Source of the DNA: Escherichia coli
GTDB lineage: Bacteria > Pseudomonadota > Gammaproteobacteria > Enterobacterales > Enterobacteriaceae
Direction: 5' to 3' (one strand)
DNA length: 47,767 nt
Assembly: GCA_024546615.1 (NCBI GenBank)
Contig: GCA_024546615.1_5040.1
Both the position numbers and the translations under genes were made by a program. Positions within the stretch are counted from its first letter, which is position 1. Every line of letters begins with the position of its first letter. Of the stretch, positions 5,353-47,767 are shown in pieces. The notes beneath the pieces were generated by a model. The model was not told the origin of the DNA and made no database searches. It saw only the letters and a list, made by a program, of their open reading frames with translations.

Positions 5353-5389
5353 CTCTCTTCTCCTGTGATAATATTTAACTAACACGTAC

Positions 5390-5418: not shown

Positions 5419-5420
5419 GC

Positions 5421-7350: not shown

Positions 7351-7468
7351 CTCTCAAACCCTCTCTGCTGTTGATAAACTGAGTATACGTCATCCCTGAC
7401 GAACCCGTCAACATAAATATTTAACCCAAATCACAACGCCGACACAAAGTAGGAGGTAGTCCATAGTG

Positions 7469-7669
7469 TCACTCCTGCGGCGGCTCGGGTAACGGTTGCC
7501 AGTGGGTTACATATTTACCGTAGTGATTCCAGAACGACTTTCTCCCGTCGTCAGGAACAATGTAGTAGTCGTGCTGAACTGCGTTATTCAACGTTTCATA
7601 CACCAGGAACTCTTTATCGGTACTACCGTTACCCGGCAACATCTCACTACACTTAATCCAGTTTGCCAT
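7469..7669 (-). CDS. DUF551-like protein (paralog of 40954-41157)
   Basis: MANWIKCSEMLPGNG...W...PLPEPP matches MSEWIKCSEQMPEPG...W..MPEAP of 40954-41157. Confidence 0.55.
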   Translation of the reverse strand: MANWIKCSEMLPGNGSTDKEFLVYETLNNAVQHDYYIVPDDGRKSFWNHYGKYVTHWQPLPEPPQE

Positions 7670-7847
7670 ACAATGTCCCCACTCGTTTTAAATCGCGCCG
7701 TGCGTGACAGCTATAAGTACCATCGTCCCACTGCACATAGTAGCGCGGTGGCTCATCAGTCATTACGTTTGCGACAACACCCGTAACGACACCGTTGGGG
7801 AACAACTTCACAAGTGTTCCGGTTGGATAACGTGGAATGGTTGTCAT
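7653..7847 (-). CDS. Hypothetical protein (64 aa)
   Basis: Minus-strand ORF upstream of DUF551-like gene. Confidence 0.4.
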   Translation of the reverse strand: MTTIPRYPTGTLVKLFPNGVVTGVVANVMTDEPPRYYVQWDDGTYSCHARRDLKRVGTLYGKLD

Positions 7848-7974
7848 AATTACTCACCCTCATACAGCGGTTTCAGTTGATACCCGAACATGACAGCGTT
7901 GTTATGCGCCACACTGCCCGCGCGGACCAGATATGTCGTACCGCGGTTGGTTGTCACTTCGTATGCGTATGGTT

Positions 7975-8340
7975 TCATTTGTCACCCTCCGACAGTTCAT
8001 CAATCAGACGCTCCAGATACCAGCGGGCCTTTTTCACATCTTCCAGACCGTTCTTCTCTTCGTAGCGCCACAGGTATTTAACAACGTTTGCCACACATAC
8101 CGCCTCGATACCAGTTTTACCAACCGTGGCGGCTTCGATAGCATCGATACACTCAATACCACCTTGTGTGTAGTGTGACGGATGATTGACCATGTCATTG
8201 ACTGCTACGGGTTCACGTTGGGCGATGATTTTTGATGTTTCCTCATGACTATTATATTGACAAACATAGTCACTGTTTACATTTTTAAACCTATCACCCA
8301 GTGAATAACCCTCGGAGCAATAATGCCTATCGGAGTACAC
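7975..8340 (-). CDS. Hypothetical protein (121 aa)
   Basis: First gene of minus-strand block downstream of promoter at 8462-8490. Confidence 0.5.
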   Translation of the reverse strand: MYSDRHYCSEGYSLGDRFKNVNSDYVCQYNSHEETSKIIAQREPVAVNDMVNHPSHYTQGGIECIDAIEAATVGKTGIEAVCVANVVKYLWRYEEKNGLEDVKKARWYLERLIDELSEGDK

Positions 8341-8443
8341 GTCACGATATAGTGCCCAATCCGGCGCACCTTCGAAGTCCTTTTCGCTACCTTTAATGTA
8401 TCACCATGTGGTCATGTTGTATCTCCTATGAAATATATGTATT

Positions 8444-9586
8444 ATGTGTTTAACGATTATCACTATGGCATACTCTGACGGACTCGTCAACATGCAAATC
8501 ACCGTAACACACAATGACCGTAAAAGTTTTGCACTGAACTCCCAACGTGTTTACACGGATGAGGGATTCCTGCGTGTGCCGGGTAAAGCCGCTCGTACCG
8601 GTATTCAGGAGTATCTTGCTTTGGAACTGGGACTAAAAGACCGCGCACCGAATGACATTATCCGTGTATACCGTCCCGCCGAAGAAGTGTTTAACGATGC
8701 GTCGCTTCAGAGCTATCTCGGCGCAGATGTCACGAATAACCATCCTCCCACATTTGTCAACGCTTCCACGTACCGTAATACCTCCGTTGGTGTTGTAACG
8801 AGTATCGGTCGTCAGGACGGCGATTTTGTCATTGTGGATATGGTCATTAAGGATAAAGACGCGATTAAGGCTGTCGAAACCGGTAAGTGTGAGTTGTCAG
8901 CCGGTTACACGGCGGTGTATGATGATACACCAGGGACAACGCCGGAAGGTGAACCGTATGACTTCCGACAGACCCAGATTAAAATTAACCACGTTGCAAT
9001 TGTTGACCGTGCTCGTGCGGGTGCAATGGCGCGTATCTTCGATAATATGGAGAAAAAACCCATGTATCAAATCACCACTGACACCGGGGTAAAAGTCGAT
9101 GTGGCGGATGCTGTGGTAGTAGACGCGTTCAAACGCTTAGAACAGCGTGTCAGTGACGCAGAAGCCGCCAAAGAAACCGTACAGGCTCAACTCGACGCAG
9201 CACTGGAACAGGTTGCCGACCTGACCACCAAATGCAGCGATGAAGCCCTGAAAGCACGCGTGGAAGCAATTGCACGTGTTACCACCTCAGCACGTAAAGT
9301 TGCTGGCGATGAATTCACCTGTGACAGCGTGGACCCGGTTGCAATCAAACGTGCCGCTCTTGCTGTTAAACGTCCGTCTGTTGACTGGGCTGACAAATCT
9401 GCCGCCTATGTTGAAGCCGCTTTCGATATGGCCGTGGAAGAACCAGTGAAACCTGTGGTAGACTCACAACTTGAGCAACTGGCTAAAGATGGTGCTAAAG
9501 ACATCAAACAGCCGGTAGCCGACGCAAAACCTGTACTGTCCCGCGCACAAGAAGCACTGCTGCGTCAGACTGGCAAACTTAAATAA
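8444..9586 (+). CDS. Putative prohead protease/scaffold (DUF2213-like N-domain plus coiled-coil C-domain)
   Basis: Position before decoration-like and capsid genes; Ala/Glu-rich helical C-terminal half; true start uncertain (ATG 8444, 8465 or 8492). Confidence 0.55.
   Translation: MCLTIITMAYSDGLVNMQITVTHNDRKSFALNSQRVYTDEGFLRVPGKAARTGIQEYLALELGLKDRAPNDIIRVYRPAEEVFNDASLQSYLGADVTNNHPPTFVNASTYRNTSVGVVTSIGRQDGDFVIVDMVIKDKDAIKAVETGKCELSAGYTAVYDDTPGTTPEGEPYDFRQTQIKINHVAIVDRARAGAMARIFDNMEKKPMYQITTDTGVKVDVADAVVVDAFKRLEQRVSDAEAAKETVQAQLDAALEQVADLTTKCSDEALKARVEAIARVTTSARKVAGDEFTCDSVDPVAIKRAALAVKRPSVDWADKSAAYVEAAFDMAVEEPVKPVVDSQLEQLAKDGAKDIKQPVADAKPVLSRAQEALLRQTGKLK
8462..8490 (-). promoter_or_regulatory. 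Sigma70-like promoter TTGACG-17-CATAGT overlapping palindrome TGACGGACTCGTCAA (8476-8490)
   Basis: Spacing read directly; faces minus-strand small-gene block. Confidence 0.5.
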
Positions 9587-14227: not shown

Positions 14228-14677
14228 TTAACTTCCGGTACTCCCAAAACCACCCTGACGGTCAGTTTTCTGTTGGGGTGGTTCATTGATTTGCTTAAAC
14301 GTCACTTGTTCGACCGGAATCAACATCCCCTGTGCAATCCGGTCACCGTGATTAACCCAGAACACACCTTCACAATGGTCAACATCCTGCGTCAACTTGA
14401 CCATCAATTCACCGGTGTAGTCACTGTCAATGACGCCGGTGCAATTTGACAGACGGACATCACTGTTAAATCCGTGACCACTGCGTGAGTAAATCATCAA
14501 AGCGTACCCAACTGGTATATCAAATTTAAGCCCTGTAGGAATGATTACGGGCTCACCGTTGCGAACTGGTACTGGTTCATCAAGTACAGCATAAATATCG
14601 AAGCACGCGCTTCCTGACGTTGCATACGTTGGAATACGTGCGCCAGGGCGTGACAGGTAAATGTTCATCTCACTCAT
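14228..14677 (-). CDS. dut: dUTP diphosphatase (dUTPase)
   Basis: Motifs SRSGHG, GVIDSDYTGE and C-terminal GGFGSTG; track ORF trimmed to MSEMNIY start with RBS GGAGAG. Confidence 0.8.
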   Translation of the reverse strand: MSEMNIYLSRPGARIPTYATSGSACFDIYAVLDEPVPVRNGEPVIIPTGLKFDIPVGYALMIYSRSGHGFNSDVRLSNCTGVIDSDYTGELMVKLTQDVDHCEGVFWVNHGDRIAQGMLIPVEQVTFKQINEPPQQKTDRQGGFGSTGS

Positions 14678-14756
14678 TTCTTCAACTCTCCAGCCGTATT
14701 GTGCGCGGTTAAGCGCGATAAATTTATCTTTCGTTGTGAATAAAACTGTTCCAGAT

Positions 14757-15155
14757 TTATGCTTTACTGCCCACATATTTAATCACCATATATCCTGGTC
14801 TGGCGGAAAGTGAGACCTTGTGTCCGTATATCCACGCGGTTTTGTATACGTATGTTAACTGTGCGGTGCGCAATTTAATGTCCGAATATGTTGCTTTAGT
14901 TCTCCAGTTCCATGTGAACTCATCGCCCGGTTTTGCTCTTTCAAGGGCGTCAAGGAGGATGATACGCTCATACGACCTTACCCCACGTGATACGCGTCTC
15001 CTGGTTTTGGGCTTCCCTCGTGCCAGACTTCGTTTATCTGGTTTTCCACTTTTTGTAATTCGTATCAGTCTCTGTGATGGCTGTGCGACATCTTGAGGGA
15101 CACTCTCTTCTGGAACAGAATTTATTTTTTTTAAAATATAAGCTGCAAATGACAT
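14757..15155 (-). CDS. Basic hypothetical protein (132 aa)
   Basis: Lys/Arg-rich; first gene downstream of promoter at 15187-15215; RBS AGAGAGG. Confidence 0.5.
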   Translation of the reverse strand: MSFAAYILKKINSVPEESVPQDVAQPSQRLIRITKSGKPDKRSLARGKPKTRRRVSRGVRSYERIILLDALERAKPGDEFTWNWRTKATYSDIKLRTAQLTYVYKTAWIYGHKVSLSARPGYMVIKYVGSKA

Positions 15156-15186
15156 GGTGTTATTCCTCTCTGTAATTTACAAAATG

Positions 15187-15215
15187 AGTATATCAGTGGC
15201 TGACGCATTCGTCAA
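15187..15215 (-). promoter_or_regulatory. Sigma70-like promoter TTGACG-17-TATACT overlapping palindrome CTGACGCATTCGTCAA (15200-15215)
   Basis: Spacing read directly; at left boundary of repeat copy A. Confidence 0.55.
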
Positions 15216-15510
15216 TACCTCATTTACCCCGAAATACCCGAGGCATCGGGGTGGCGAATTTACTTTCACAATCATAGGTTTACGCGCATAACCGAAAACC
15301 ACGTACATTCTTCCCCTCTTCCCTCTTATAAACCCTATAATATATACATTATGTATTATACTACATTTATACTATATATTATATACTCTCTATTACTACT
15401 AATTACTATTTTATAAGGGTATAAGGGTAATAAGTAATAAGTAACAGAAAACTAAAGAGTTTTTTATACCCCGATGACATACCCCGAACGAGTTTCAACG
15501 GGGTATGTGG
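15211..15510. repeat. Repeat copy A (~300 bp, about 93% identical to 47502-47767 plus 1-35): hairpins, AT-rich TATA-rich core, TAAGGGTA/ATAAGTA short direct repeats
   Basis: Direct by-eye alignment of the two copies; hairpin CCCCGA-N13-TCGGGG near 15228-15252 and ATACCCCG-N12-CGGGGTAT at 15479-15506. Confidence 0.85.
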
Positions 15511-18536: not shown

Positions 18537-18569
18537 AGGGGCCTGATGGCCCCTTAATTATTTTCTTTT
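18537..18569. terminator. Bidirectional intrinsic terminator
   Basis: Hairpin AGGGGCC-TGAT-GGCCCCT followed by T-rich tract; sits between convergent genes. Confidence 0.6.
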
Positions 18570-18806
18570 ACTCCGAATGTGAAAGTCTGCTTTACCCATC
18601 ATATCTTTACGCCAGCAAACGCCGGTACCCATATACGCCGGGTCGTCACTTTCCGCATAACCAAATTCATTTTCATGATATGTGCAAATCGTGTCGGTCT
18701 GCCCGTCATAAATCTGGAATTGCTCACCTTGTTCAGCGTGGGCGCTGTTGCAGTAAATTGTTACAGCCATGATGACTGCTAACTGAATTTTAAATTTGTG
18801 AATCAT
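18558..18806 (-). CDS. Small secreted protein (moron candidate) with signal peptide
   Basis: MIHKFKIQLAVIMAVTIYCNSAHA then EQ...; Cys-containing mature part; own promoter and terminator; antisense to tail genes. Confidence 0.5.
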   Translation of the reverse strand: MIHKFKIQLAVIMAVTIYCNSAHAEQGEQFQIYDGQTDTICTYHENEFGYAESDDPAYMGTGVCWRKDMMGKADFHIRSKRK

Positions 18807-18836
18807 TTTGTACTCTCCTGTTGTTCTGTTGGGGTA

Positions 18837-18865
18837 ACTATAGCTCATCTTGACGAGTCCGTCAA
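18837..18865 (-). promoter_or_regulatory. Sigma70-like promoter TTGACG-17-TATAGT overlapping palindrome TTGACGAGTCCGTCAA (18850-18865)
   Basis: Spacing read directly; drives secreted moron gene. Confidence 0.55.
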
Positions 18866-22547: not shown

Positions 22548-23194
22548 GTTTAATTAACCTTCTGGTAAAGCGCGGCCCACAGCTTGGGTCGCTTCAGTTC
22601 GATGCCGTCCTGTCTGATGACCTTGATGCCAGCGTGGATATCGTGCAGTACCCCATTGAGACAGGTACGCCAATTGCAGACCACATTATCTATCAGCCTA
22701 TTCGTTACACGATGACAGGTGCGGTATCGAACAACCCGTTGAAAGTTAGTATCACCGATTTCACCGGGGTATTGACAAATCTCGTCGATGATAATCCGTT
22801 CATTGCAGCGGGTGCCGGTCTGTTCGCGGGGTGGTTAAGCGGCTCGAATGAAACTCGCTCCAGTACGACACTGAACACTTTGCTTGATTTCATGTACTCC
22901 GGGCAGGTATTCACAGTGGATACGGGTGAAATCACGCTGAATAATATGGTCATTCAGCGTATCGGGCGCTCTAAAGACCCGGAGAATGAGAACGGACTGA
23001 TATTTGTTGCTGAACTACAGCAGATTGTCACGCTTGACCGCGTGGCGAACGGTTCACAACCGGCACAATATCAGCTGAACAGTAACGACGTTTCCAGCAC
23101 ATCCATATCAGGACTGATTGAGCGTGGTTACATCAATGTGAAAACAGCTGCAACGAATGTTGCTGACCAGGTTACGACACTTTTGGATTTGTAA
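22544..23194 (+). CDS. Putative baseplate/tail assembly protein (216 aa)
   Basis: Stop/start overlap with upstream gene; position in baseplate module. Confidence 0.45.
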   Translation: MSLINLLVKRGPQLGSLQFDAVLSDDLDASVDIVQYPIETGTPIADHIIYQPIRYTMTGAVSNNPLKVSITDFTGVLTNLVDDNPFIAAGAGLFAGWLSGSNETRSSTTLNTLLDFMYSGQVFTVDTGEITLNNMVIQRIGRSKDPENENGLIFVAELQQIVTLDRVANGSQPAQYQLNSNDVSSTSISGLIERGYINVKTAATNVADQVTTLLDL

Positions 23195-23220
23195 AAAAAA
23201 ATCCCGCCACGGAGGGCGGG
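23193..23220 (-). terminator. Minus-strand intrinsic terminator (A9 tract then CCCGCC-ACGGAG-GGCGGG)
   Basis: On minus strand reads hairpin followed by U9; on plus strand the hairpin lacks a U tract. Confidence 0.5.
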
Positions 23221-23229
23221 TGAACGCTA

Positions 23230-23745
23230 CAGAGAGATGATACAGCAGGCTGGGTAGTTCAGGTAAAGGCTGTCCCTTAACTCAACTATCTCGCTATCAT
23301 TGTCATGTTTCGCAACGTTACGTTGATAACTTCGGCTTAACCCTGCCGCTGGGAGATACAGGAATCACCTCCTGTCGGGATGTTTAAGGTTGTGGTGGTT
23401 GGAATCGAACCAACTCCCATCGGTGCGCTGCCGATTGCAATACGCGCGGTATTCCGCTACATGACTAGTATTTTCACAGATACCTATTTGCTAGCTCGCC
23501 ATTGAGCTTCACCACAACGGAAAGAGCACTGAGACACGCGTCCGTGTCGCCTGCGCAATGGGTTCGAGTTCCGCTGATATGCGCCAATGCTCTTACCTGT
23601 TATGTGGTCGAACCGCCACGGTGACCAACCGCATTCGTGCATGCCTGGCTACACATTTCGGCTACCCGCTGATGCGAAGGAATAGGACACCCCGGACCGC
23701 TAAAGACACATGTGCTATATGCCTGTGAATAAATAATTACATTGT
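23230..23745 (-). ncRNA. Candidate minus-strand non-coding transcript with tRNA-like T-arm/acceptor module
   Basis: No credible ORF; inverted repeats GTTGTGGTG (23390-23398) and CACCACAAC (23509-23517); T-loop-like GTTGG-TTCGATT-CCAAC on minus strand; upstream TTGACA-type promoter, downstream terminator. Confidence 0.25.
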
Positions 23746-23796
23746 TTGACGTGAGTGTCAATAGTATACTTGACATTATTTTCACAGGAGGGCGAC

Positions 23797-32346: not shown

Positions 32347-32375
32347 ACTCTAAACTACTTTGACGCACTCGTCAA
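32347..32375 (-). promoter_or_regulatory. Sigma70-like promoter TTGACG-17-TAGAGT overlapping palindrome TTGACGCACTCGTCAA (32360-32375), embedded in 3' end of upstream gene
   Basis: Spacing read directly. Confidence 0.5.
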
Positions 32376-32948
32376 CGGTAAAACTAACTTTTCTGCTTCC
32401 TGAATGTACCAGTCGTAATTCAGTGCTCCCCAGTCGAAGTCTTTAGCGTCGGCACACTCTGTCACCTTCCATCCTGCACACATACTTGTTTCGCGCACTG
32501 CATCGTGCTTACTGCGACTCTTCGTGTGGATACGCTCGTCCCACGGTGTACCAATGCTGTCGAGGTCGCCCGGTTGACCTGTAATCTCACGCATTACCGC
32601 ATTGTACACATCGTCCTTGACACCATTCTTACGCTTCCATGTACCTGGTGTACCAGTGGGCGGTAACAGCTTGACCAGTGACCCACCGTTACGCGAGATA
32701 AATACACGTGTGGTATTCTGCATCTCCTGTTCAGCGCCCCACTCAGGCCAACGCATCACCAGACGTGCCGAACGAGGTACTTTGGCGCGCAGCATGAAGT
32801 CGAACGGGTCACGGTGCTGCGTGATGAACGTGCGGATGTCAGTGTCAAACAGAAGTGCGGCTTCAGCGGCGCGGGCAACAATCATCGCCGATGGGTCTTG
32901 ATGCCACTGGTATTTGTACTCGTAACACCCTTTTCTTTTAATTTTCAC
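32355..32948 (-). CDS. Hypothetical protein (197 aa) sharing GTPWDERIH motif with 37785-38834
   Basis: Motif DSIGTPWDERIHTKS versus DSTGTPWDERIHSTS in the 349-aa protein. Confidence 0.45.
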   Translation of the reverse strand: MKIKRKGCYEYKYQWHQDPSAMIVARAAEAALLFDTDIRTFITQHRDPFDFMLRAKVPRSARLVMRWPEWGAEQEMQNTTRVFISRNGGSLVKLLPPTGTPGTWKRKNGVKDDVYNAVMREITGQPGDLDSIGTPWDERIHTKSRSKHDAVRETSMCAGWKVTECADAKDFDWGALNYDWYIQEAEKLVLPLTSASK

Positions 32949-33828
32949 GGGTTGCCTCCAGCATTTCTAAAATTCGATTGTCCCATTTCAACCATTCGGT
33001 ACAACCATCAAAACCAGATAGTCCAGCATTAACGAAAGAAGAATGAGTTAGTTTTTCGATAAATTCCATTTTTCCACCTATGCCAGATAAAACTCGGAGT
33101 AACTGAAAATCAAATGGCGTACTTCTTTTCAATTTCCTCAAGCGATATTTATAATTATTGCTGATACCGACCTTCATATATTCCCCACCTTTGGAAGCAA
33201 GTACATAAAGGGAAGCCATCTGGTTACGTTTAAATCCACTCTTAGAACAGTCTTGACATCCTTGTCCACCGGATACGTGATCTATAGCCAATTTTTCAAA
33301 ACTACCGTGAACAGGGCAAATTATCTTTATTTTATGATGATTACCTTTATATTGAGATTCCGAATAATCATACTTATCCCCATGTACTGCGCGGGCTTTC
33401 TCAATCCATTCTTCGGTGTTATAAAGAGGAAGTCGTCCTTTTCCAGGACCTCCTGCGCATTTCGCGCACCCGTGGCCTTTTAGATGATTGCCGGCTAATT
33501 GGAGGAATTCCCCATGCTCTCGACAAATGATTATTATTTCTGAATGTCGTTTTTTATACTTAACCTTCGAATAATCATACTTATCTCCATGTACTGCACG
33601 GGCTTTCTCAATCCATTCTTCAGTGCTGGATTTTTTTGTCCCACCACAAACTGGGCAGCCGGAACCAGAACAGTGAGACGTGGGTTCTTGTCGGAAATCT
33701 CCATGCAATCGACAAACAATGGTCACTTTATGTTTTGAAGTACGATACTCGACCTTCGAATAATCATACTTATCTCCGTGTACCGCACGGGCTTTCTCAA
33801 TCCATTCTTCTGTGTTCAATCTTCTCAT
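32938..33828 (-). CDS. Homing-endonuclease-like protein: three tandem zinc-ribbon modules plus C-terminal T5orf172 (GIY-YIG-like) domain
   Basis: Three repeats of EEWIEKARAVHGDKYDYS...; C-terminal YVLASKGGEYMKVGISNNYKYRLRKL...GCTEWLKW; contains three ~55-bp DNA direct repeats. Confidence 0.6.
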   Translation of the reverse strand: MRRLNTEEWIEKARAVHGDKYDYSKVEYRTSKHKVTIVCRLHGDFRQEPTSHCSGSGCPVCGGTKKSSTEEWIEKARAVHGDKYDYSKVKYKKRHSEIIIICREHGEFLQLAGNHLKGHGCAKCAGGPGKGRLPLYNTEEWIEKARAVHGDKYDYSESQYKGNHHKIKIICPVHGSFEKLAIDHVSGGQGCQDCSKSGFKRNQMASLYVLASKGGEYMKVGISNNYKYRLRKLKRSTPFDFQLLRVLSGIGGKMEFIEKLTHSSFVNAGLSGFDGCTEWLKWDNRILEMLEATREN

Positions 33829-35348
33829 TCTATTACCATTATGTAATTATTCACATCTCGCTGATAGAGAGATTTCACAATATCAGTCTCCAGATTCAAC
33901 ATTGTTGTTTTTTCCCAAGACTTACATATGGATTCCACCAAAATTTCATATTTGTTTTCATAAAAAATGACGATTCCGTCAGTATTAGTTTGCGGTACGA
34001 TTAATCCGGGTACACGAGTTACAAGTTGGTCTACCAACATTGCCAAACAGAGTTGACCTGTAATAGTAATACTCAGGAGACACTTATGGTCACAAAATGG
34101 GCTAAATTTACTCCCCATGTTCCCAAATGTACCATTAAGAGCAAGTTTCAATGCCGCATCAACTGTTTTATCTCCCGCTCGTTTTGCATCACGACGACGA
34201 ATGAACAGTTGTTCATATACGTCGCAAAAAGTTTCACTAAGGTGTTCCGGATAGTACCTATTCTTTATACTAATGGAAGGGTACATACTTGTACAGTCTT
34301 TGTTTTGTAAATTGTGTGTTTGGGTAGAATGCACAACGTAGTTCGGAATACTACTGTGAATACCTCCCAATCCGAACGAATATTCGACACCATCAACTGT
34401 GACGGTCATATCACTAAACACACCTTTTGTGGTCAGTAATTCGTCCTGTTGTTTCTTCGTGAGTACAACCCCACGAATGCGTTCCAGAATTTGATTGAAC
34501 TCCGGTCGTTCGAATTTGATATAAGGGGGTATGCAATCTGCAAGTGCAATACGTTCACGAATGGTTACTCCGGAGCAATCTACCCCGGCCTTTTCCAGCT
34601 CGTGAACGAATATATCTTTGCCGATTTTAGTGTCGGCGTGGTTCATGAAGTTACGTCCGTATTGCTTTGTCAGTTCCTCACGGAAATGGATTTTGTCGAG
34701 TGAACGTACAAAGAATTTCAGCGTCTCTCGCACGTCGTGTTTGTTATATACGATGAGGATATCTTTCTGCGCATCGTTCAGCACCATTCCGACCGGGAAT
34801 GGCAGGTCTTTTACGTTGGGGGACTGCATGCCCACTTCCAACGCCTTCAGACTGGTGCGCCGGGCTTTATTATCAAAGTGATGAATTTTGTACAGGTCAA
34901 TCTGCTCGAAAATCTGGTCGCGGTCCCATACAATTTCGGGCCACTGACCTTCGGGTTTAATTTGTGATTGTGCTTTTGTGTAAATCTGTTCCAGTGTACA
35001 GCCTGGTGTATTGACCACGTAGTGCAACACCGGATAGTCGAATGCCAGGTTATTAAATCCAATCCCACGGGCCTTACTACATCCCAGGTTGAACACAAAT
35101 TCGATTAATTGCGGTTGCTCGTTTTTGCGGTCACTAATCTCGAAGATTAACTCCATACCCGTCGCAGCGTGAATAAATGAGGCAGTGAAGATATTCGGAT
35201 ACGTCTCGATGTCCCATCCCCAGTCCCGCGGGTCCAGTGGTGCAACGCTGGAGAACGCCGAATCAGCCCCACAGTGAGGGCAATTGTGGAGGTCAGCGGG
35301 ATAATTTTTACCGCAAGTTGCATCCTCGCATTTTGATAAATAGTGCAT
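33825..35348 (-). CDS. Compact family-B DNA polymerase with 3'-5' exonuclease motifs and N-terminal zinc finger
   Basis: Exo I WDIETY, Exo II FNNLAFDYPVL, Exo III YNKHDVRE; motif A DCTSMYPSI, motif B KLALNGTFG, motif C TNTDG; N-terminal C-x4-C-x11-C-x2-C. Confidence 0.7.
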   Translation of the reverse strand: MHYLSKCEDATCGKNYPADLHNCPHCGADSAFSSVAPLDPRDWGWDIETYPNIFTASFIHAATGMELIFEISDRKNEQPQLIEFVFNLGCSKARGIGFNNLAFDYPVLHYVVNTPGCTLEQIYTKAQSQIKPEGQWPEIVWDRDQIFEQIDLYKIHHFDNKARRTSLKALEVGMQSPNVKDLPFPVGMVLNDAQKDILIVYNKHDVRETLKFFVRSLDKIHFREELTKQYGRNFMNHADTKIGKDIFVHELEKAGVDCSGVTIRERIALADCIPPYIKFERPEFNQILERIRGVVLTKKQQDELLTTKGVFSDMTVTVDGVEYSFGLGGIHSSIPNYVVHSTQTHNLQNKDCTSMYPSISIKNRYYPEHLSETFCDVYEQLFIRRRDAKRAGDKTVDAALKLALNGTFGNMGSKFSPFCDHKCLLSITITGQLCLAMLVDQLVTRVPGLIVPQTNTDGIVIFYENKYEILVESICKSWEKTTMLNLETDIVKSLYQRDVNNYIMVIE

Positions 35349-36442: not shown

Positions 36443-36471
36443 ATACTACGTTAGTTTGACGAGTGCGTCAA
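36443..36471 (-). promoter_or_regulatory. Sigma70-like promoter TTGACG-17-TAGTAT overlapping palindrome TTGACGAGTGCGTCAA (36456-36471); 5'-UTR hairpin GGGAGAC/GTCTCCC at 36414-36432
   Basis: Spacing and hairpin read directly. Confidence 0.5.
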
Positions 36472-37784: not shown

Positions 37785-38834
37785 TCACTCCCCCAAATGC
37801 GCTTTAACACGTGCCACGAACGGACCGATTTTATCCGGGTGGGCGTTCAGTTCCTGTACCGACGACATGCCATCCTGCGCCAGTAGCATATTCACCGTTA
37901 CCACATCAATCTTGCCGTGACGCTCGGTCAGGAAGGTCATGAGGCGCGGGAAGTCCCATATGGTGTGGTCTACCATACGCTCTAACGCTGGAGAGACAGT
38001 GCCCGACGGTGGGAAAGGAACGCCGTCATCGAATTGCGGCACAGGTGGTGCAACAACTACCGGCGGCGGTACAGGCAGTGGCGGAATACCCGCAACGGTT
38101 TGCTCGGTTACCACACCTGCGTCAGTGTGGAAGTCGTCACCCGGAGGTGTTACAGCTGGTTCGACGTCGTCGCTTTCCCCAACACCAACACCACCGTTGC
38201 CGCCAGAGCCGGGTCGGCGGTCTGTATCCCAGGATTCATCGCCCGGCGGTGTTACGGGTGGTTCTAGCATCTTGTTAGAAGCTTCGATGAGTTCGTCGAC
38301 TTCTTCTCGTGTGGGTTCACCAATTTCCACGGGTTCCAGGGCTTTAACTTCTTCATCAGTCATTACTGGTGTTTGAGTATGCGACTCAGCTTTCACCGAC
38401 TCAACAAATGCTGCCCACTCTTCTTCATCCATATCCTTCGGCTTACGACGCAAACGCCACGTACCGTCCACATTGAGCGCTTTGCTGGTAGAGTGGATAC
38501 GCTCATCCCACGGTGTACCGGTTGAGTCGGTAGTGGGTGGGTCGATATCCGGTTTAACTGGTACGCACAATTCAACCATTTCGCGAGTTACTTCAATACT
38601 TCTCCCGTCACGGGGAGCCAGTGACTCAACCTGTTGAGCGGTCGTGTCGATTTCCGGCTCATCCATCATTTGTGGCGCGGGTTGTTGCAGTGCTTCAGTG
38701 CCGATAACCAGTGGGGTTACGGTCACATCGACCGGGTAACCATCTTTTTTGCTGGCAATTTCGATAAGCGCTTTACCGAATTGAAACAATGCGATGGTAT
38801 CATCGTTCGGGATGGTCAGTGTGATGTTACTCAT
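37785..38834 (-). CDS. Acidic, proline-rich hypothetical protein (349 aa)
   Basis: First gene of leftward replication block; low-complexity Pro/Glu/Asp-rich regions; shares GTPWDERIH motif with 32355-32948. Confidence 0.5.
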   Translation of the reverse strand: MSNITLTIPNDDTIALFQFGKALIEIASKKDGYPVDVTVTPLVIGTEALQQPAPQMMDEPEIDTTAQQVESLAPRDGRSIEVTREMVELCVPVKPDIDPPTTDSTGTPWDERIHSTSKALNVDGTWRLRRKPKDMDEEEWAAFVESVKAESHTQTPVMTDEEVKALEPVEIGEPTREEVDELIEASNKMLEPPVTPPGDESWDTDRRPGSGGNGGVGVGESDDVEPAVTPPGDDFHTDAGVVTEQTVAGIPPLPVPPPVVVAPPVPQFDDGVPFPPSGTVSPALERMVDHTIWDFPRLMTFLTERHGKIDVVTVNMLLAQDGMSSVQELNAHPDKIGPFVARVKAHLGE

Positions 38835-38868: not shown

Positions 38869-38897
38869 ACTCTATATCACCATGACGCAGCCGTCAA
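38869..38897 (-). promoter_or_regulatory. Sigma70-like promoter TTGACG-17-TAGAGT overlapping palindrome ATGACGCAGCCGTCAA (38882-38897)
   Basis: Spacing read directly. Confidence 0.5.
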
Positions 38898-38911: not shown

Positions 38912-38954
38912 TTGACACGGGGTGGGTGGTGCGACATAATGACGCCATCGTCAA
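38912..38954 (+). promoter_or_regulatory. Sigma70-like promoter TTGACA-17-CATAAT with palindrome ATGACGCCATCGTCAA (38939-38954) overlapping -10/+1
   Basis: Near-consensus hexamers; palindrome in operator-like position. Confidence 0.55.
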
Positions 38955-38974: not shown

Positions 38975-39151
38975 ATGAGCCAAATTAAACGCAAAGTAAC
39001 ACATCGTGTTTGCCCTTTATGTGGGTATGTAATGACTCAACTGGAAATAGACAGACTTCGTTTTCCGGTTGAGTGCCCCAGATGTGGCGAACACAACACA
39101 AACGAGTTTCAACCTCTCAAATGGGAGTCCGACAACAGTGACACAAATTAA
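38975..39151 (+). CDS. Small zinc-ribbon protein (58 aa, C-x2-C ... C-x2-C)
   Basis: RBS GAAGGAG; VCPLCG and ECPRCG pairs; below track cutoff. Confidence 0.45.
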   Translation: MSQIKRKVTHRVCPLCGYVMTQLEIDRLRFPVECPRCGEHNTNEFQPLKWESDNSDTN

Positions 39152-39298: not shown

Positions 39299-40957
39299 GT
39301 GGGAGATGTGATGCAACTGCGCCCATATCAGTCCAGTCTTGTGACTGGGATCAATAATTATTGGTCAACAAACCCACGGGGTAAAGTGCTGGCGGTGCTT
39401 GCGACAGGTGGTGGGAAGACTGTTATTTTCTCATCTATTATCGCTGCCGAACAAGGTGCGACATGTGCCATTGCACACCGCCAGGAACTCGTCAGTCAGA
39501 TGAGTCTCACGCTTGCCAAAAACGGTATCTATCACCGCATTGTCGGTTCGAATAAAACCGTGAAAAACTGTGTGAAGATTCACATGGATGAATTAGGTAA
39601 GACATTTTACGACGCTGGAAGTAAACACGCGGTCGCCAGTGTGGACACAATCATCCGGCGTGGCGAGCAACTTGCCAACTGGTTACCGTCTGTTCGTCTG
39701 TGGGTTATCGATGAGGCACACCATGTACTTAAAGATAACAAATGGGGCAAAGCCGTGCAGATGTTCCCCAATGCTCGCGGGCTGGGGGTTACAGCTACAC
39801 CGTGTCGTGCGGATGGTAACGGTCTGGGAAGTCATGCAGATGGCGTGTTTGATACTATGTTCGAAGGCGTGGCAATGGGGGAACTCATACGAGATGGGTA
39901 TCTGACCGATTACAAAATTTTCGCACCTCCCAGTAGTTTCTCACGTGAACAAATTAAGGTGAGCGAGTCCACGGGGGATTTCAACCTGAACCAGATGAGG
40001 GAGGTCGTTAACGGCTCATCACTGGTGACACACGATGAGAAAACCATCACCGGTGATGTTGTTGCTCAATATCTGAAAATTGCCCGTGGTAAATCCGGCG
40101 TGACATTCACTGTCGACGTGGCGAGCGCTGAGGAAATCGCGGAACAGTATAATAAAGCAGGTGTCCCGGCAGCGGCAATAAGCTGTAACACTCCTGACCT
40201 TGAACGATTCGCAGCGGTGCGAAAATTTAAAAATAAAGAGATATTACAATTAGTTAACTCCGAGATTCTGACCGAGGGCTTCGATTGTCCCGGCATTGAG
40301 GTTGTTTCATTCGGTCGTCCAACCGAATCGTACAGTATGTATAGTCAAATGTTTGGCCGCGCCCTCAGACCATTACCAGGTAAAACCCACGCAATTATTA
40401 TTGACCATGTGGGTAACGTCATGCGCCACGGTTTACCGGATGCACCGCGTGAGTGGAGTCTTGACCGTCGGGAGCGTCGCACGGGTAAAAGTGAACCATC
40501 TACGGTGCGTGTGTGTACAGCTTGCGCGGCAGTGTATGAGCGGTTCCGTGACGCGTGTCCTGACTGTGGCGAACCTGTGCCAAAACCGGCGCAACGTAGT
40601 GGTCCCGAATTCGTAGACGGTGACCTGTACGAGCTTGACCCGGACGTACTGGCGCAGATGCGTAACGAGGTTGTGGGAGCACGTGAGACACCCGAGGCAA
40701 TGCGTGACAGACTGACTGGTCGCTACATGCCACAAGCTGGTGTCATAAGTGAGGTACGAAAACAAATAAAACGTCTTGACGCGCTCGTCAAACTGGACCA
40801 TACTCTTGCTCAGTGGGCCGGTTATCGCCGTGCGGAAGGTCTGAGCGACAGCGAAATATTTCGTAAATTTTACCTGACGTATGGTGTGTCATGGCTGGAG
40901 GCGCAGGCGCTCAAAGCGGCTGATGCGGATAAATTACGGGAGAGGATTGGATTGTGA
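39299..40957 (+). CDS. SF2 DEAD/DEAH-box helicase
   Basis: Walker A LATGGGKT, motif II VIDEAHH; RBS GGGAGA. Confidence 0.75.
   Translation: MGDVMQLRPYQSSLVTGINNYWSTNPRGKVLAVLATGGGKTVIFSSIIAAEQGATCAIAHRQELVSQMSLTLAKNGIYHRIVGSNKTVKNCVKIHMDELGKTFYDAGSKHAVASVDTIIRRGEQLANWLPSVRLWVIDEAHHVLKDNKWGKAVQMFPNARGLGVTATPCRADGNGLGSHADGVFDTMFEGVAMGELIRDGYLTDYKIFAPPSSFSREQIKVSESTGDFNLNQMREVVNGSSLVTHDEKTITGDVVAQYLKIARGKSGVTFTVDVASAEEIAEQYNKAGVPAAAISCNTPDLERFAAVRKFKNKEILQLVNSEILTEGFDCPGIEVVSFGRPTESYSMYSQMFGRALRPLPGKTHAIIIDHVGNVMRHGLPDAPREWSLDRRERRTGKSEPSTVRVCTACAAVYERFRDACPDCGEPVPKPAQRSGPEFVDGDLYELDPDVLAQMRNEVVGARETPEAMRDRLTGRYMPQAGVISEVRKQIKRLDALVKLDHTLAQWAGYRRAEGLSDSEIFRKFYLTYGVSWLEAQALKAADADKLRERIGL
40776..40804 (+). 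promoter_or_regulatory. Internal promoter TTGACG-17-CATACT with palindrome TTGACGCGCTCGTCAA inside helicase 3' coding region
   Basis: Spacing read directly. Confidence 0.4.
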
Positions 40958-41631: not shown

Positions 41632-41660
41632 TTGACCACTCCGTCAACCTGTGCCATACT
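41632..41660 (+). promoter_or_regulatory. Sigma70-like promoter TTGACC-17-CATACT overlapping palindrome TTGACCACTCCGTCAA (41632-41647)
   Basis: Spacing read directly. Confidence 0.5.
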
Positions 41661-41689
41661 GCAACAAATCACCTAATGGAACCGAATTT

Positions 41690-41968
41690 ATGAGCAAAGA
41701 ATACATTTTAGAAGTAGCTTACACAATGGCGCAGCGCGACGGCTTTGGCACTCTTACCCGCGACGGCGTTGCGGCTGAGGCTGGCGTGGCGATGGGTTCA
41801 GTTAACCATCACTGGGTCAGGATGTCCGCACTTCGTGAAGCAGTGATGCAACGGGCAGTGGAAGAAGAAAACCTCGAATTGATTGGACAGGGAATGGCGC
41901 TGGGTGATAGCGTTGCCAAATCCGCACCACTGGAGCTACGCACCCGCGCACTGACCACCCTGCTTTAA
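41690..41968 (+). CDS. Small HTH protein, TetR-like N-terminal fold (candidate transcriptional regulator)
   Basis: TLTRDGVAAEAGVAMGSVNHHW resembles TetR-family HTH; track ORF trimmed to MSKEY start. Confidence 0.45.
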   Translation: MSKEYILEVAYTMAQRDGFGTLTRDGVAAEAGVAMGSVNHHWVRMSALREAVMQRAVEEENLELIGQGMALGDSVAKSAPLELRTRALTTLL

Positions 41969-41990: not shown

Positions 41991-44348
41991 ATGACACATA
42001 TGAATCCCCCTGTGCAGGGGGCTGATTCCCTGCACTTTATCGTCTGCAAAACAGTACCTTCACAGAAGAAGCCGGGACGTACGGAGAAGATGCCATGTAA
42101 CGCTGCCGGTGATGTGGTCAGTCTGCACGTTGCGGACCGGATGTCTCACGCTCAGGCAGTTGCGGCGGCTTCCGCACTGGGTGAGTCATATCGTCCCGCG
42201 GTTATTCTTACGGGTGACGGACGTTTCTGCGTGGATATCGACGGCGCACTGCAGGACGACAACACCTGGTCGCCGCTTGCGCTGGAGTTATGCACCACTT
42301 TTGCCGGTTGTTACGTGGAAGTGAGCAACAGCGGTAAAGGCTTGCACATTTTTGGTTACAGCCCGTCCATCCCCGAACATGCCTGTAAAAATATTCCACT
42401 ACACATTGAACTGTACACCTCTGACCGTTTTATCTGCCTGGGGAGCAACGCACGAGGTGACATGATGTTCAACGCATCTGCGCCGCTCAACGCCACGGTT
42501 GCACGTTATTTCCCGCAGACCGAACAAGTTGCGGCGGTGGAGTGGACAACGACTCACGCTGAAGGTTCGTGTCCGATTGAGGATGATGTGAAACTCATCG
42601 AAAAAGCCTGTTCCAGTAAAGGCGGTGTCGCGGCTGTTTTCGGTGGTAAAGCAACATTCAAAGACCTGTGGACGCGCAACGTTGAGGTACTGAGTGATGC
42701 GTATCCGGATGAGGACCGTGAATATGACGGGTCAAGCGCTGATGCAGCATTAGCCCAGCATCTGGCGTTCTGGTGCGGCGGTAACTGTCAACGTATTGAG
42801 CGTCTGATGCGTCTCAGTGCCCTTGTCAGACCAAAATGGGACAGCCATAAGAGTTACCTTCAACGCACCATCCTGGGCGCTTGCGCACGTCAGACGACTT
42901 ATTACAGCGTCGGTGCACCAATTGAACTGGTAACTCCCGCGCAGGTTGTCGAGACGGGTGCGCCGGTTATCCGCAGTGGGTATCAGTTCATTGGAGGCTC
43001 ACAGCTTGTTGACCACTTCAAAGGCTGCGTGTATGTGGCAGACAGTCACCGCATTCTCACACCTAACGGTCAGATGCTGAAGTCCGAGCAGTTTAACGCG
43101 ATGTACGGTGGTTATGTGTTTGCACTGGATGACGGTAACGAAAAGACCACCAAAAAGGCTTTTGAAGCGTTCACCGAGAATCAGTGCATCATGTTCCCGA
43201 AGGTTGATCGCTCGACATTTCGTCCGGATTTGCCACAGGGTGCAATCATTGAGGAGGATGGTCTGCGTCACGTCAATACGTACATACCGGTGACGGTGGC
43301 GAGCGCCCCCGGCGATGTGACACCTTTCCTCACTCATCTGGCCAAACTGTTACCCGTCGAGCGCGACCGTGACATTCTGTTGTCCTACATGGCAGCGTGT
43401 GTACAGTACAAGGGTGTAAAATTTAAATGGGCACCATTGTTACAGGGTGTTGAAGGTAACGGTAAAACACTGTTCACACTGTGCGTAATGGAAGCGGTCG
43501 GGTCACGTTACAGCCACATGCCGCCAGCGCAGGAAATTGGTGAGAAGTTCAACGCCTGGTTGTTCGATAAAATATTTATCGGCGTGGAGGATATTTATGT
43601 CCCGGAGCAAAAACTCGAACTGATTGAGACGCTCAAGCCGATGATTACCGGCGAGTACCTCGCCAAGCGTGCGATGCAACAGGACCAGGTAATGCACCGC
43701 CTGTGTGCTAACTTCATGTTTAACAGTAACCACAAGAACGCCGTGCGCAAGACCGCTAATGACCGCCGGTTCGCCATTTTCTACACCGCGCAGCAGGAGC
43801 ATATGGACATTGTGCGCGATGGTATGGGTGGCGACTACTTCCCCAACCTGTATGACTGGCTCAAACGTGGCGGTGGATTTGCAGCCGTAACGCATTATCT
43901 GGAGAACTACGCCATTCCCACACAACTTAACCCGGCGACACATTGTCAGCGTGCCCCGGAAACAAGTAGTACCCACGAGGCTGTGACAGCATCACTCGGC
44001 AGTGTCGAGCAGGAAATTATGGAAGCAATCGACGAGGGTCGCACGGGCTTCGCGGGGGGCTGGGTGAGTAGTAAAGCACTGGATAATCTGTTACGCCAGA
44101 TGCGCGCTGACCGCGCTGTGCCGGTGGGTAAACGTCGCGACATGATGCGCCAACTGGGTTACGACTGGCACCCGGCGCTTAAAGACGGGCGTGTGAATAA
44201 CGTAATAATGATTGATGGTGGTAAACCGCGTCTCTACATCAAGATTGGACATATTCATGCTAACCTCACAAATGCGGCGGACGTGGCGCGCCATTACGCA
44301 GCAGCACAGGGTGATACAAGTGCGTTAGCCTTTGCAGAAACTAAATAA
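41991..44348 (+). CDS. Primase-helicase (P4 alpha/D5-like, SF3 helicase C-domain)
   Basis: 785 aa; Walker A GVEGNGKT, Walker B FIGVEDIYV; N-terminal primase-like domain; RBS AGAGAGACAGAG. Confidence 0.7.
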   Translation: MTHMNPPVQGADSLHFIVCKTVPSQKKPGRTEKMPCNAAGDVVSLHVADRMSHAQAVAAASALGESYRPAVILTGDGRFCVDIDGALQDDNTWSPLALELCTTFAGCYVEVSNSGKGLHIFGYSPSIPEHACKNIPLHIELYTSDRFICLGSNARGDMMFNASAPLNATVARYFPQTEQVAAVEWTTTHAEGSCPIEDDVKLIEKACSSKGGVAAVFGGKATFKDLWTRNVEVLSDAYPDEDREYDGSSADAALAQHLAFWCGGNCQRIERLMRLSALVRPKWDSHKSYLQRTILGACARQTTYYSVGAPIELVTPAQVVETGAPVIRSGYQFIGGSQLVDHFKGCVYVADSHRILTPNGQMLKSEQFNAMYGGYVFALDDGNEKTTKKAFEAFTENQCIMFPKVDRSTFRPDLPQGAIIEEDGLRHVNTYIPVTVASAPGDVTPFLTHLAKLLPVERDRDILLSYMAACVQYKGVKFKWAPLLQGVEGNGKTLFTLCVMEAVGSRYSHMPPAQEIGEKFNAWLFDKIFIGVEDIYVPEQKLELIETLKPMITGEYLAKRAMQQDQVMHRLCANFMFNSNHKNAVRKTANDRRFAIFYTAQQEHMDIVRDGMGGDYFPNLYDWLKRGGGFAAVTHYLENYAIPTQLNPATHCQRAPETSSTHEAVTASLGSVEQEIMEAIDEGRTGFAGGWVSSKALDNLLRQMRADRAVPVGKRRDMMRQLGYDWHPALKDGRVNNVIMIDGGKPRLYIKIGHIHANLTNAADVARHYAAAQGDTSALAFAETK

Positions 44349-44370
44349 GCCCTTCGGGGCTTTTTTTTTT
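44347..44370 (+). terminator. Intrinsic terminator GCCC-TTCG-GGGC plus T10
   Basis: Read directly. Confidence 0.75.
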
Positions 44371-44380
44371 GCAATTAGTA

Positions 44381-44409
44381 TTGACGGACTCGTCAATAGG
44401 GCGTATATT
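44381..44409 (+). promoter_or_regulatory. Near-consensus sigma70 promoter TTGACG-17-TATATT with palindrome TTGACGGACTCGTCAA (44381-44396)
   Basis: Read directly; preceded by conserved GCAATTAGT. Confidence 0.65.
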
Positions 44410-44458
44410 TAATCACATGAAAGGCGGAACTGTTCCACCCCACGGGGAGAATAAGAAA

Positions 44459-44590: not shown

Positions 44591-44616
44591 CAGCCCCTGA
44601 ATGGGGCTTTTTTTTT
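44591..44616 (+). terminator. Intrinsic terminator AGCCCC-TGAAT-GGGGCT plus T9
   Basis: Read directly. Confidence 0.75.
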
Positions 44617-44626
44617 GCAATTAGTG

Positions 44627-44655
44627 TTGACGAGTCCGTCAAGGTAGGTTATCTT
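44627..44655 (+). promoter_or_regulatory. Sigma70-like promoter TTGACG-17-TATCTT with palindrome TTGACGAGTCCGTCAA (44627-44642)
   Basis: Read directly; same GCAATTAGT upstream context as 44381. Confidence 0.6.
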
Positions 44656-44689
44656 TAACTCATCGGAACAACAACAGAGAGGAATACAA

Positions 44690-46872: not shown

Positions 46873-47451
46873 TTATCTCCCACAGTTGCGACATTTGCCA
46901 TTCGCCACATAACGTTCTGCAATAATATTACAGTGCTTGCAAGGCTCATACGGAATATACCAGCGTTTGCCATCAGCGATAGCTTGCTGGCGCGGCGATT
47001 TAATTTTAATGATGCCGACGTGGATTCCTGCTTCACTCAGTAACAGGGCGTTTTTCATCGTCTCTAACTGTTCATTCAAAACGGAAATATTGTGCTCAAT
47101 CATTGCGATGTTCTCACGCAGTGCATCGGCTTCACCAGTAGTGCTAACAACGGCTGATTTTGGTTTTTTCCATTCCCCTGTCATGCGCTGCTCGGTTAAG
47201 CAGAAGACACATTTGCCAGCAGTGTTACGGACACCCGGATGTCCACATTCACTGTTCGGTTTCTTCTGCACCCTCCACGAACGACCATCGTTAAGACCGT
47301 CGAGAACTTTCTGATAGAGTTCATTACGTGCAGGAAGACCCATGTTTTTCGCTTTCACAAAATTATAGTGGTCATCAAGTGTACAAATACTGCACAATTC
47401 TGTTTCTTTAAATTTTGTATCGCCGTGACAATTATCTCTGAGATGAATCAT
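46873..47451 (-). CDS. Cys-pair-rich (zinc-finger-like) hypothetical protein (192 aa)
   Basis: Three C-x2-C pairs; RBS AGGAGAGAAAC; first gene downstream of promoter at repeat B boundary. Confidence 0.5.
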   Translation of the reverse strand: MIHLRDNCHGDTKFKETELCSICTLDDHYNFVKAKNMGLPARNELYQKVLDGLNDGRSWRVQKKPNSECGHPGVRNTAGKCVFCLTEQRMTGEWKKPKSAVVSTTGEADALRENIAMIEHNISVLNEQLETMKNALLLSEAGIHVGIIKIKSPRQQAIADGKRWYIPYEPCKHCNIIAERYVANGKCRNCGR

Positions 47452-47506: not shown

Positions 47507-47767
47507 TACCTCATTTTACCCCGAAATACCCGAGGCATCGGGGTAGCGAATTTACTTTCACAATCAGCAGCTTACGCGCATAACCGAAAACCCCGTACAT
47601 TCCTCCCCTCTTCCCTCTTATAAACCCTATAATATATACATTATGTATTATACTACATTTATACTATATATTATATACTCTCTATTACTACTAATTACTA
47701 TTTATTAGGGGTATAGGGGTAATAAGTAGTATAGTACTGAAAGGTAAAGAGTTTTTTATACCCCGAT
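47502..47767. repeat. Repeat copy B (continues into 1-35), about 93% identical to 15211-15510
   Basis: Direct alignment by eye; same hairpins and AT-rich core as copy A. Confidence 0.85.

Follow-up and report, generated by a model that had tools for sequence, protein, structure and literature searches.

What reads a 16-bp palindrome that recurs at most of the near-consensus promoters of a phage genome, and could its reader be a small TetR-like protein encoded in the same genome? The question is raised by a 47,767-nucleotide (nt) stretch of DNA from an Escherichia coli assembly (GCA_024546615.1, contig GCA_024546615.1_5040.1), referred to over its whole length as the window, which is a complete 47.8-kb Klebsiella myophage of the Jedunavirus type. 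Its open reading frame (ORF) 41690-41968, on the plus strand, encodes a protein that we call mini-TetR, and a first-pass annotation had put this protein forward as a candidate regulator of a palindrome regulon. Our analysis suggests that mini-TetR is plausibly the phage's own genome-wide promoter repressor, apparently an undescribed one, and that binding of the palindrome by mini-TetR, with repression as the outcome, is moderately probable on the sequence and comparative evidence presented below.

In a de novo count of all 5-mer dyads, TGACG-N4-CGTCA ranked first, with 13 exact copies in the window against 0.04 expected. The longer form TTGACGNNNNCGTCAA (TTGACG-N4-CGTCAA) was found 14 times at ≤1 mismatch against a shuffle mean of 0.2, and none of 100 shuffles reached the observed counts, which bears out the earlier claim of one palindrome repeated genome-wide. 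Twelve copies share the fixed form TTGACG-N4-CGTCA(A/G/T)-N7-TAnnnT, and in these 12 promoters the palindrome makes up the −35 hexamer and runs 10 bp into the 17-bp spacer, with its centre at about −27.5; a thirteenth copy (7396-7411) has a spacer of 18 nt, not 17. A plain sigma-70 scan returned about 15 near-consensus promoters, 13 of which carry the palindrome at the −35/spacer, the exceptions being P47506 and P38912, the latter with a palindrome over −10/+1 instead. No sigma-70 element corresponds to the right half-site (CGTCA); across 45 sites from six genomes, a set pre-filtered on similarity to the pattern, the bases of this half-site were kept at C39 G45 T38 C45 A45. The genes under palindromic promoters are the replication genes, accessory genes behind the terminators at 44347 and 44592, and the minus-strand clusters of small genes. 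By the same scan the plus-strand virion genes are without comparable promoters, and several of them start 1 to 3 nt past a palindrome.

Other identities of the palindrome were considered and rejected. As intrinsic terminators, for which two copies had been flagged, the sites have stems of only 6 bp, mostly lack a T-run and stand at a fixed distance upstream of a −10; as bidirectional −35 elements, they rarely have a usable −10 on the opposite strand; and FNR/CRP-type sites, of the form TTGA-N6-TCAA, are 2 bp shorter than the phage site.

The mini-TetR gene itself lies behind such a promoter. The first-pass annotation had described a promoter at 41632-41660 overlapping the palindrome, and this was confirmed at the sequence level: TTGACCACTCCGTCAA fills 41632-41647, with a left half that departs from consensus (C for G), and sigma-70-like elements are present. 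The primase gene downstream is presumably co-transcribed with mini-TetR, the first cistron of the P41632 operon, whose terminator lies at 44347-44362. The TTGACC...CATACT arrangement was also found upstream of the homologue in phages JD001 and AAM22 and in metagenome contig L016; the TTGACC left half is shared by phage CP-T1 and contig L017, and phage PEi21 (TTGACA) shares the CATACT −10. The homologue's own promoter bears the dyad in JD001, CWW26, AAM22, CP-T1, PEi21, phiPLPE and SppYZU01, and a palindromic promoter stands directly upstream of the homologue in all four metagenome contigs (L011, L015, L016 and L017) that had been picked regardless of DNA motifs. In most of these own promoters the left half is TTGACC or TTGACA, not TTGACG, as expected if the autoregulated operator is the weakest.

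From its ATG start the ORF yields a product of 92 amino acids (aa), so that the gene predicted earlier stands and its estimated length of roughly 93 aa is corrected by one residue. A longer GTG start at 41651 was rejected, as it precedes the predicted −10 and annotators of relatives do not use it (JD001 gp45 is 279 nt). The Pfam profile TetR_N (PF00440) matched residues 6-52 over its entire 47 positions with 27.7 bits (gathering threshold 24; E 2.3e-6), and the segment TLTRDGVAAEAGVAMGSVNHHW, earlier quoted as a helix-turn-helix (HTH) like that of the TetR N-terminal domain, falls inside this above-threshold match. Among 65 small and medium ORFs of the window scanned against Pfam, TetR_N was the sole transcription-factor-type domain. 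The best sequence match in the PDB was 3t6n (E 4e-5), and the best PDB alignments, to TetR-family proteins, cover only the first 50 to 70 residues.

AlphaFold2, run with a 109-sequence alignment, gave a seven-helix model with a predicted local distance difference test (pLDDT) score of 97.5 and a predicted template modeling (pTM) score of 0.89. Helices 1 to 3 are the TetR DNA-binding helices, followed by helix 4 and a three-helix stub (62-70, 74-77 and 81-91). The fold neighbours listed by Foldseek against the PDB were TetR-family chains only, with a high root mean square deviation and target-relative TM-scores of 0.23 to 0.37, the rest of the chain superposing poorly; no solved protein of this size was among these matches. 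The C-terminal all-helical domain for effector binding and dimerization (helices 4-9/10, in proteins of ~190 to 220 aa in total) is missing from the 92-aa protein, and homologues keep the short length. By its DNA-binding domain mini-TetR thus belongs to the TetR superfamily, but it lacks the effector/dimerization-domain feature of the family, and ligand control is unlikely because the model shows no pocket-forming domain.

The family was delimited by several searches. PHROG 8723 ("unknown function") matched residues 1-91 of the window protein (E 9.7e-38) and also matched phiPLPE gp14, the homologue in phage PY6 and a tandem protein (P0158); NCBIfam gave only sub-threshold matches, to the DNA-binding domain. 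A word-indexed search found 138 close relatives, nearly all of 92 to 93 aa and mostly on phage-sized contigs, and HMMER, run exhaustively over 1.84 billion cluster representatives, found 137 clusters at E ≤ 1e-10. By size, 108 are single-module proteins of ≤125 aa (most ~90 to 120 aa) and 34 are proteins of ~165 aa with two matched stretches. The latter class, about a quarter of the clusters (P0140-P0272, 34 clusters; also L005 38065-38565 and L021 729-1235), carries a further HTH module (helices 1-4) that a linker joins to a complete mini-TetR module, and was modeled as a confident single chain (pLDDT 94.9, pTM 0.84). A fold search with the tandem form gave matches to TetR DNA-binding domains only and no solved two-HTH analogue. 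Such tandem fusions indicate a functional unit with two heads for reading DNA, in keeping with a homodimer where only a single module is present.

Co-occurrence of protein and palindrome was compared over 14 phage genomes, with sites counted at ≤1 mismatch and absence of a homologue judged by hidden Markov model (HMM). Besides the window, the genomes with this type of mini-TetR carried 11 sites (JD001), 12 (CWW26), 13 (Pantoea phage AAM22), 9 (Vibrio phage CP-T1), 7 (Edwardsiella phage PEi21), 4 (Iodobacter phage phiPLPE) and 3 (Shewanella phage SppYZU01). Homologues with a divergent recognition helix came with no sites in B2, R9Y2 and Pseudoalteromonas phage PY6 and with 2 in CKB-S1, which are not at promoters. 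Two phages with a related virion module and no homologue, Aeromonas phage 56 and Yersinia phage PY100, had 0 sites and 1 site, respectively; Comeau et al. 2012 placed both in the same virion-module group (PMC3391216). Enrichment of the palindrome was thus confined to genomes with this type of mini-TetR. Most informative is phiPLPE, in which a DnaD/DnaC/RecET replication module replaces the helicase-primase block, yet mini-TetR and the palindromes are both kept: its gp14 (5114-5425), which RefSeq lists as hypothetical, is a mini-TetR (HMM E 2e-22), with a promoter, TTGCAG-17-TACAAT, that is overlapped by ATGACGCATACGGCAA. SppYZU01 has only the replication block in common, and its few palindromes lie there. 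By BLAST and HMM, no non-structural protein other than mini-TetR was shared by every palindrome-bearing lineage.

The homologue of PY6 (contig L010) is 32% identical to that of the window and has the helix SPPAVQHHF versus AMGSVNHHW. PY6 carries five copies of an 18-bp dyad, GTAGCGC-N4-GCGCTAC (7107, 8014, 12382, 19992 and 28188), each in the spacer of a TTGACA/TTGACT-17-TACACT promoter and overlapping the −10, so the theme of a phage-specific dyad within standard promoters persists there while the sequence of the dyad changes.

The position of the TTGACG dyad is not fixed either. Three placements were found, namely at the −35, over −10/+1, and 12 nt ahead of a hexamer resembling a −10. For the second, the dyad begins on the last two bases of the −10 in window promoter P38912 (CATAAT|GACGCCATCGTCAA), upstream of phiPLPE gp14 (TACAAT|GACGCATACGGCAA) and in contig L021 (CATAAT|GACCGCCCCGTCAT); in P38912 the palindrome, ATGACGCCATCGTCAA at 38939-38954, overlies the final 2 nt of the −10 together with the region of the transcription start. 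The third occurs at the baseplate operon of the window, in PEi21 and at the phiPLPE junctions with a TG-extended −10, and in AAM22 with the spacing only and no clear TG. Because its sequence is kept while its position shifts, the palindrome behaves as an operator and not as a recognition element of RNA polymerase.

An operator may of course be read by another protein than the one proposed, either a RutR-like TetR protein of the host or an unrecognized phage protein, with mini-TetR acting as a local regulator of the primase operon or as an origin-associated replication accessory; we regard this as unlikely, and as the strongest of the alternatives. RutR, a TetR-family dimer of E. coli, binds the 16-bp box TTGACCAnnTGGTCAA via two successive major grooves (PMC2475637, PMC2952853), and the box and the phage site share their length and their outer TTGAC/GTCAA arms; for mini-TetR, a protein of the same superfamily, RutR is thus also a supporting precedent. 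The phage sites fit the RutR consensus at 11 to 12 of 14 positions, where genuine chromatin immunoprecipitation targets fit at 9 to 13, a match that speaks for a RutR-like host protein as an alternative or additional binder. The inner half-site differs, however, being CG in the phage and CA/TG in RutR, and half-site position 3 (G in the phage, C in the RutR box) is among the positions shown to be important for RutR binding. Moreover, the palindrome follows the phage gene and not the host, which may be Klebsiella, Pantoea, Edwardsiella, Vibrio cholerae, Iodobacter or Shewanella. A local role in replication would agree with the tight synteny of the mini-TetR gene with nuclease, helicase and primase in many phages, including those without a palindrome regulon, but phiPLPE retains gene and palindromes without the primase/helicase module, and PY100 and Aeromonas 56 have neither the gene nor palindrome enrichment. 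As for an overlooked phage protein, many small ORFs of the window are without a detectable domain and could hide a DNA binder; no other non-structural ORF has the same phyletic pattern. Three such binders had been named by the first-pass annotation and are disfavored here, none having a DNA-binding Pfam domain: the zinc-ribbon protein 38975-39151 and the basic protein 14757-15155 are conserved in close relatives only, and the Cys-rich protein 46873-47451 is missing from CP-T1 and undetected in phiPLPE.

The candidate sites are listed in Table 1. Along most of its length the window shows ~90 to 92% identity to phages of Klebsiella and Escherichia in the JD001/KpV52/SBP group (genus Jedunavirus), and a long direct repeat spans both of its ends, so it is effectively a complete, circularly permuted genome. 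The plus strand holds the virion genes, broken up by clusters of small minus-strand genes, and a replication block at ~32 to 44 kb comprises a polymerase, a single-stranded DNA-binding (SSB)-like protein, an exonuclease, a helicase, a nuclease and the primase. The antisense clusters among the virion genes (3380-5418, 6200-8490, 14228-15215 and 18558-18865) each have their own palindromic promoter, which ends 1 to 3 nt ahead of the start codon of the next plus-strand gene (e.g. 5418/5421 and 8490/~8492), and the layout of antisense clusters with palindromic promoters of their own recurs in AAM22, PEi21, CP-T1 and phiPLPE. The phage group is regarded as virulent, and no integrase, partition genes or classical repressor were seen in the annotated relatives JD001 and CWW26.

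Table 1. Palindromic sites, promoters and the primase gene of the window
Feature	Position	Strand	Sequence elements	Context
Palindromic promoter	5403-5418	minus	TTGACGactcCGTCAG-N7-TAGAGT	minus-strand small-gene cluster; abuts head gene start codon at 5421
Palindromic promoter	7396-7411	minus	TTGACGggttCGTCAG; −10 TATACT after 18-nt spacer	
Palindromic promoter	8475-8490	minus	TTGACGagtcCGTCAG-N7-CATAGT	abuts prohead protease gene start
Palindromic promoter	15200-15215	minus	TTGACGaatgCGTCAG-N7-TATACT	minus-strand cluster 15155 down to 14228
Palindromic promoter	18850-18865	minus	TTGACGgactCGTCAA-N7-TATAGT	
Variant palindrome	23746-23761		TTGACGTGAGTGTCAA	upstream of baseplate operon; also in AAM22 and PEi21
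Palindromic promoter	32360-32375	minus	TTGACGagtgCGTCAA-N7-TAGAGT	end of DNA polymerase gene
Palindromic promoter	36456-36471	minus	TTGACGcactCGTCAA-N7-TAGTAT	drives SSB-like and DNA polymerase genes
Palindromic promoter	38882-38897	minus	TTGACGgctgCGTCAT-N7-TAGAGT	drives gene 37785-38834 and exonuclease operon
Non-palindromic promoter P38912	38912-38954	plus	TTGACA-17-CATAAT	zinc-ribbon/helicase operon
Palindromic promoter	40776-40791	plus	TTGACGcgctCGTCAA-N7-CATACT	inside 3' end of helicase gene; drives DUF551 and nuclease genes
Mini-TetR/primase operon promoter	41632-41660	plus	−35 TTGACC (41632-41637), 17-nt spacer, TG-extended −10 CATACT (41655-41660)	
Primase-polymerase/helicase gene	41991-44348	plus	NrS-1-like HBD and DUF5906	starts 22 nt past mini-TetR stop
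Palindromic promoter	44381-44396	plus	TTGACGgactCGTCAA-N7-TATATT	right behind terminator 44347-44362
Palindromic promoter	44627-44642	plus	TTGACGagtcCGTCAA-N7-TATCTT; site also given as TTGACGAGTCCGTCAA	right behind terminator 44592-44608

From the gene, its fold, the statistics and positions of the palindrome and its co-occurrence with the protein, we infer the binding, dimerization, repressive sign and timing in the following model. Mini-TetR would be a ligand-independent protein in which a short helical stub replaces the effector-binding domain and which sits as a dimer on the 16-bp TTGACG-N4-CGTCAA. The near-consensus sigma-70 promoters would fire unaided once the DNA enters the cell, and a dimer placed over −35 to −20, or over −10 to +8, would exclude the host RNA polymerase. 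Made together with the primase from P41632, mini-TetR would appear alongside the replication functions and accumulate, so that the early and middle units (the replication genes and the minus-strand antisense clusters) would be progressively shut off and its own promoter, with a conservedly weaker left half-site (TTGACC), would be shut off last. Control would be purely by concentration, because there is no effector domain. The benefit may lie in the minus-strand clusters, which fire head-on into virion genes: if they fell silent late, antisense transcription and collisions between polymerases would cease.

Several points weigh against this model. The canonical TetR dimerization helices alpha8 and alpha10 are missing from mini-TetR, and its net charge, counted from the sequence, is slightly negative. 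Homologues in B2 (Stenotrophomonas), CKB-S1, R9Y2 (Alteromonas) and the high-GC contigs L018 and L022 come without an enriched palindrome, so a genome-wide regulon is not a property of the whole family, as judged from individual GenBank phages and metagenome contigs, most of the contigs being <7 kb; many family members may act on a single target or just a few. A post hoc rule for the recognition helix, in which G/S at position 39 and N/S/T at position 42 predict pairing with TTGACG, fits nine lineages, fails for P0139 and was dropped as a predictor; it is suggestive only. The support is correlative, and the lineages are related, with about six independent positive and about six negative ones. 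It is also not obvious what a virulent phage would gain from repressing nearly all of its strong promoters, relief from antisense transcription being our own suggestion, and late promoters were not identified with confidence in the window.

A different sign of regulation was also considered. Mini-TetR might bind the palindrome and mainly activate or switch, turning on late plus-strand extended −10 promoters from a centre at about −32.5 while turning off the early ones back to back with them, which we hold to be quite unlikely. Three divergent junctions of phiPLPE do have the palindrome, 12 nt and then TGnTAnAAT on the plus strand. The variant palindrome upstream of the window's baseplate operon is likewise followed on the plus strand, after 12 nt, by an extended −10, TGaCATTAT, with the palindrome centre near −32.5; the 12-nt spacing at this operon is found in the window, PEi21 and AAM22, and TG extension in the window and PEi21. 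Canonical promoters are otherwise missing from the plus-strand virion genes. Most plus-strand genes of the window, however, begin 1 to 3 nt past the palindrome, too close for a promoter of this kind to fit, the −10 assignments are consensus matches only, and we know of no precedent for TetR-type activation from a centre at −32.5.

That there is no dedicated binder at all, the right half-site being intrinsic or inherited (as part of a copied promoter cassette or of a spacer sensed by RNA polymerase) and the TetR-like protein unrelated to it, is very improbable: the left half is in itself a good −35 hexamer, two of the terminator-promoter cassettes are clearly duplicated, and the central N4 is non-random (AGTC preferred), as expected of copies from one ancestral sequence, but N4 and N7 vary while CGTCA is kept across genera whose mini-TetRs are only 34 to 49% identical to that of the window, the palindrome also occurs off the −35 (three lineages have it over −10/+1, and it is also seen 12 nt ahead of extended −10s), related phages lacking the gene have promoters without the palindrome, and we know of no sigma-70 contact at −25 to −21.

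A repressor of this kind, acting at many promoters of its own phage, would have partial counterparts among known systems. With TetR, QacR and RutR mini-TetR shares the three-helix HTH (PF00440), but it has 92 residues versus ~190 to 220, no effector core and no alpha8/alpha10 interface, an inducer is not expected, and its candidate targets are over a dozen promoters within the phage genome itself versus one efflux or catabolic operon. P1 C1 and mycobacteriophage L5 gp71 (with its "stoperators") are small repressors that act on many genome-scattered copies of one short site at or after promoters. The window, too, has many copies of one operator-like site at promoters; these two, however, are temperate immunity repressors with asymmetric sites and unrelated folds, whereas here the group is regarded as virulent and the site is a perfect dyad. 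The p4 protein of Bacillus phage phi29 is a small dimer that binds inverted repeats at host-sigma promoters, represses early ones by overlap of the −35 and can activate a late one; it differs in having an unrelated fold, few sites, a need for the nucleoid protein p6 and a Gram-positive host. Lambda CI and Cro resemble the proposed system in that their dyad operators overlap −35/−10 and the promoter of the repressor itself has a weaker operator, giving graded autoregulation, and differ in acting at a single control region, with another class of HTH and with a cooperative tetramerization that is not suggested for mini-TetR.

The genes of relatives are already annotated as "TetR family transcriptional regulator" or "hypothetical". 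Comeau et al. 2012 discussed the tetR-like genes of phiPLPE, CP-T1 and phage 138 as co-opted cellular regulators and mentioned no promoters or palindromes; they also reported temperate behavior for CP-T1, which is without known lysogeny genes (PMC3391216). In the searchable literature we found nothing relevant on promoters or transcription timing in Jedunavirus or JD001, on the motif, or on truncated phage TetR proteins.

Further features of the window were recorded alongside. The primase carries an NrS-1 polymerase-like helix-bundle domain (HBD) together with DUF5906 and may be a primase-polymerase, and the helicase (39299-40957) has weak, sub-threshold zinc-ribbon matches at about residues 400-431. 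Helicase, nuclease, mini-TetR and a Cas4-like exonuclease co-travel in myo- and siphophages of many hosts, most of which also have the primase. A 79-nt repeat (80 to 100% identical) occurs three times at 33349-33823, ~200 nt apart, within a 296-aa minus-strand ORF (32938-33828) that sits between ORFs 33825-35348 and 32355-32948, which jointly correspond to the DNA polymerase. Because the CWW26 polymerase is a single 2.1-kb gene, that of the window looks interrupted by an inserted repeat-bearing gene. Downstream of the primase, a cassette of terminator tail, GCAATTAGT and palindromic promoter is duplicated (44357-44412 and 44603-44658), the four central bases of the palindrome being inverted between the copies (GACT versus AGTC).

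Two non-coding stretches, 15223-15475 and 47515-47767, form a direct repeat of at least 253 nt with 92% identity and run on into 15476-~15530 and 1-~45, respectively. Within the repeat are a hairpin-like GC segment (CCCCGAAATACCCGAGGCATCGGGG), a TATA-repeat tract that is very rich in AT, and GGGTATAAGGGTAA motifs. Its copies stand upstream of plus-strand virion blocks (TerS at 83 and a neck gene at 15560), and metagenome contig L021 has a comparable AT-rich stretch with GGGTATAAAGGGTAAAGG at ~5150-5260. The repeat could serve as a late promoter, an origin or a packaging site. A further stretch of some 550 nt (23190-23745), apparently non-coding, separates the tail genes from the baseplate operon and lies behind a strong terminator-like hairpin (CCCGCCACGGAGGGCGGG); ARAGORN found no tRNA or tmRNA in 23190-23750, though the segment looks tRNA-like by eye.

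Should mini-TetR prove not to be the reader, the palindrome regulon would still require a binder. If it is, the promoter architecture of an entire phage group would be explained. The family would then offer a minimal TetR scaffold that works without an inducer, has a defined 16-bp operator and comes with variants re-targeted in nature, possibly an orthogonal repressor part. As Jedunaviruses and their relatives are common candidates for Klebsiella therapy, the protein would also provide a means to block or synchronize these phages, since its supply in trans should abort infection, and it would be a testable candidate for the lysogeny-like behavior of CP-T1. More tentatively, and on the doubtful side of possible, the phiPLPE, CP-T1 and Jedunavirus lineages may share an unrecognized ligand-independent whole-genome switch, in which a dimer of a ~90-aa single-domain TetR protein would switch off nearly all of the phage's sigma-70 promoters and may license extended −10 late promoters at back-to-back junctions; such a switch could underlie the temperate or pseudolysogenic behavior of CP-T1, for which no integrase, partition system or classical repressor is known, and the tandem and PY6-type variants would represent its re-targeting.

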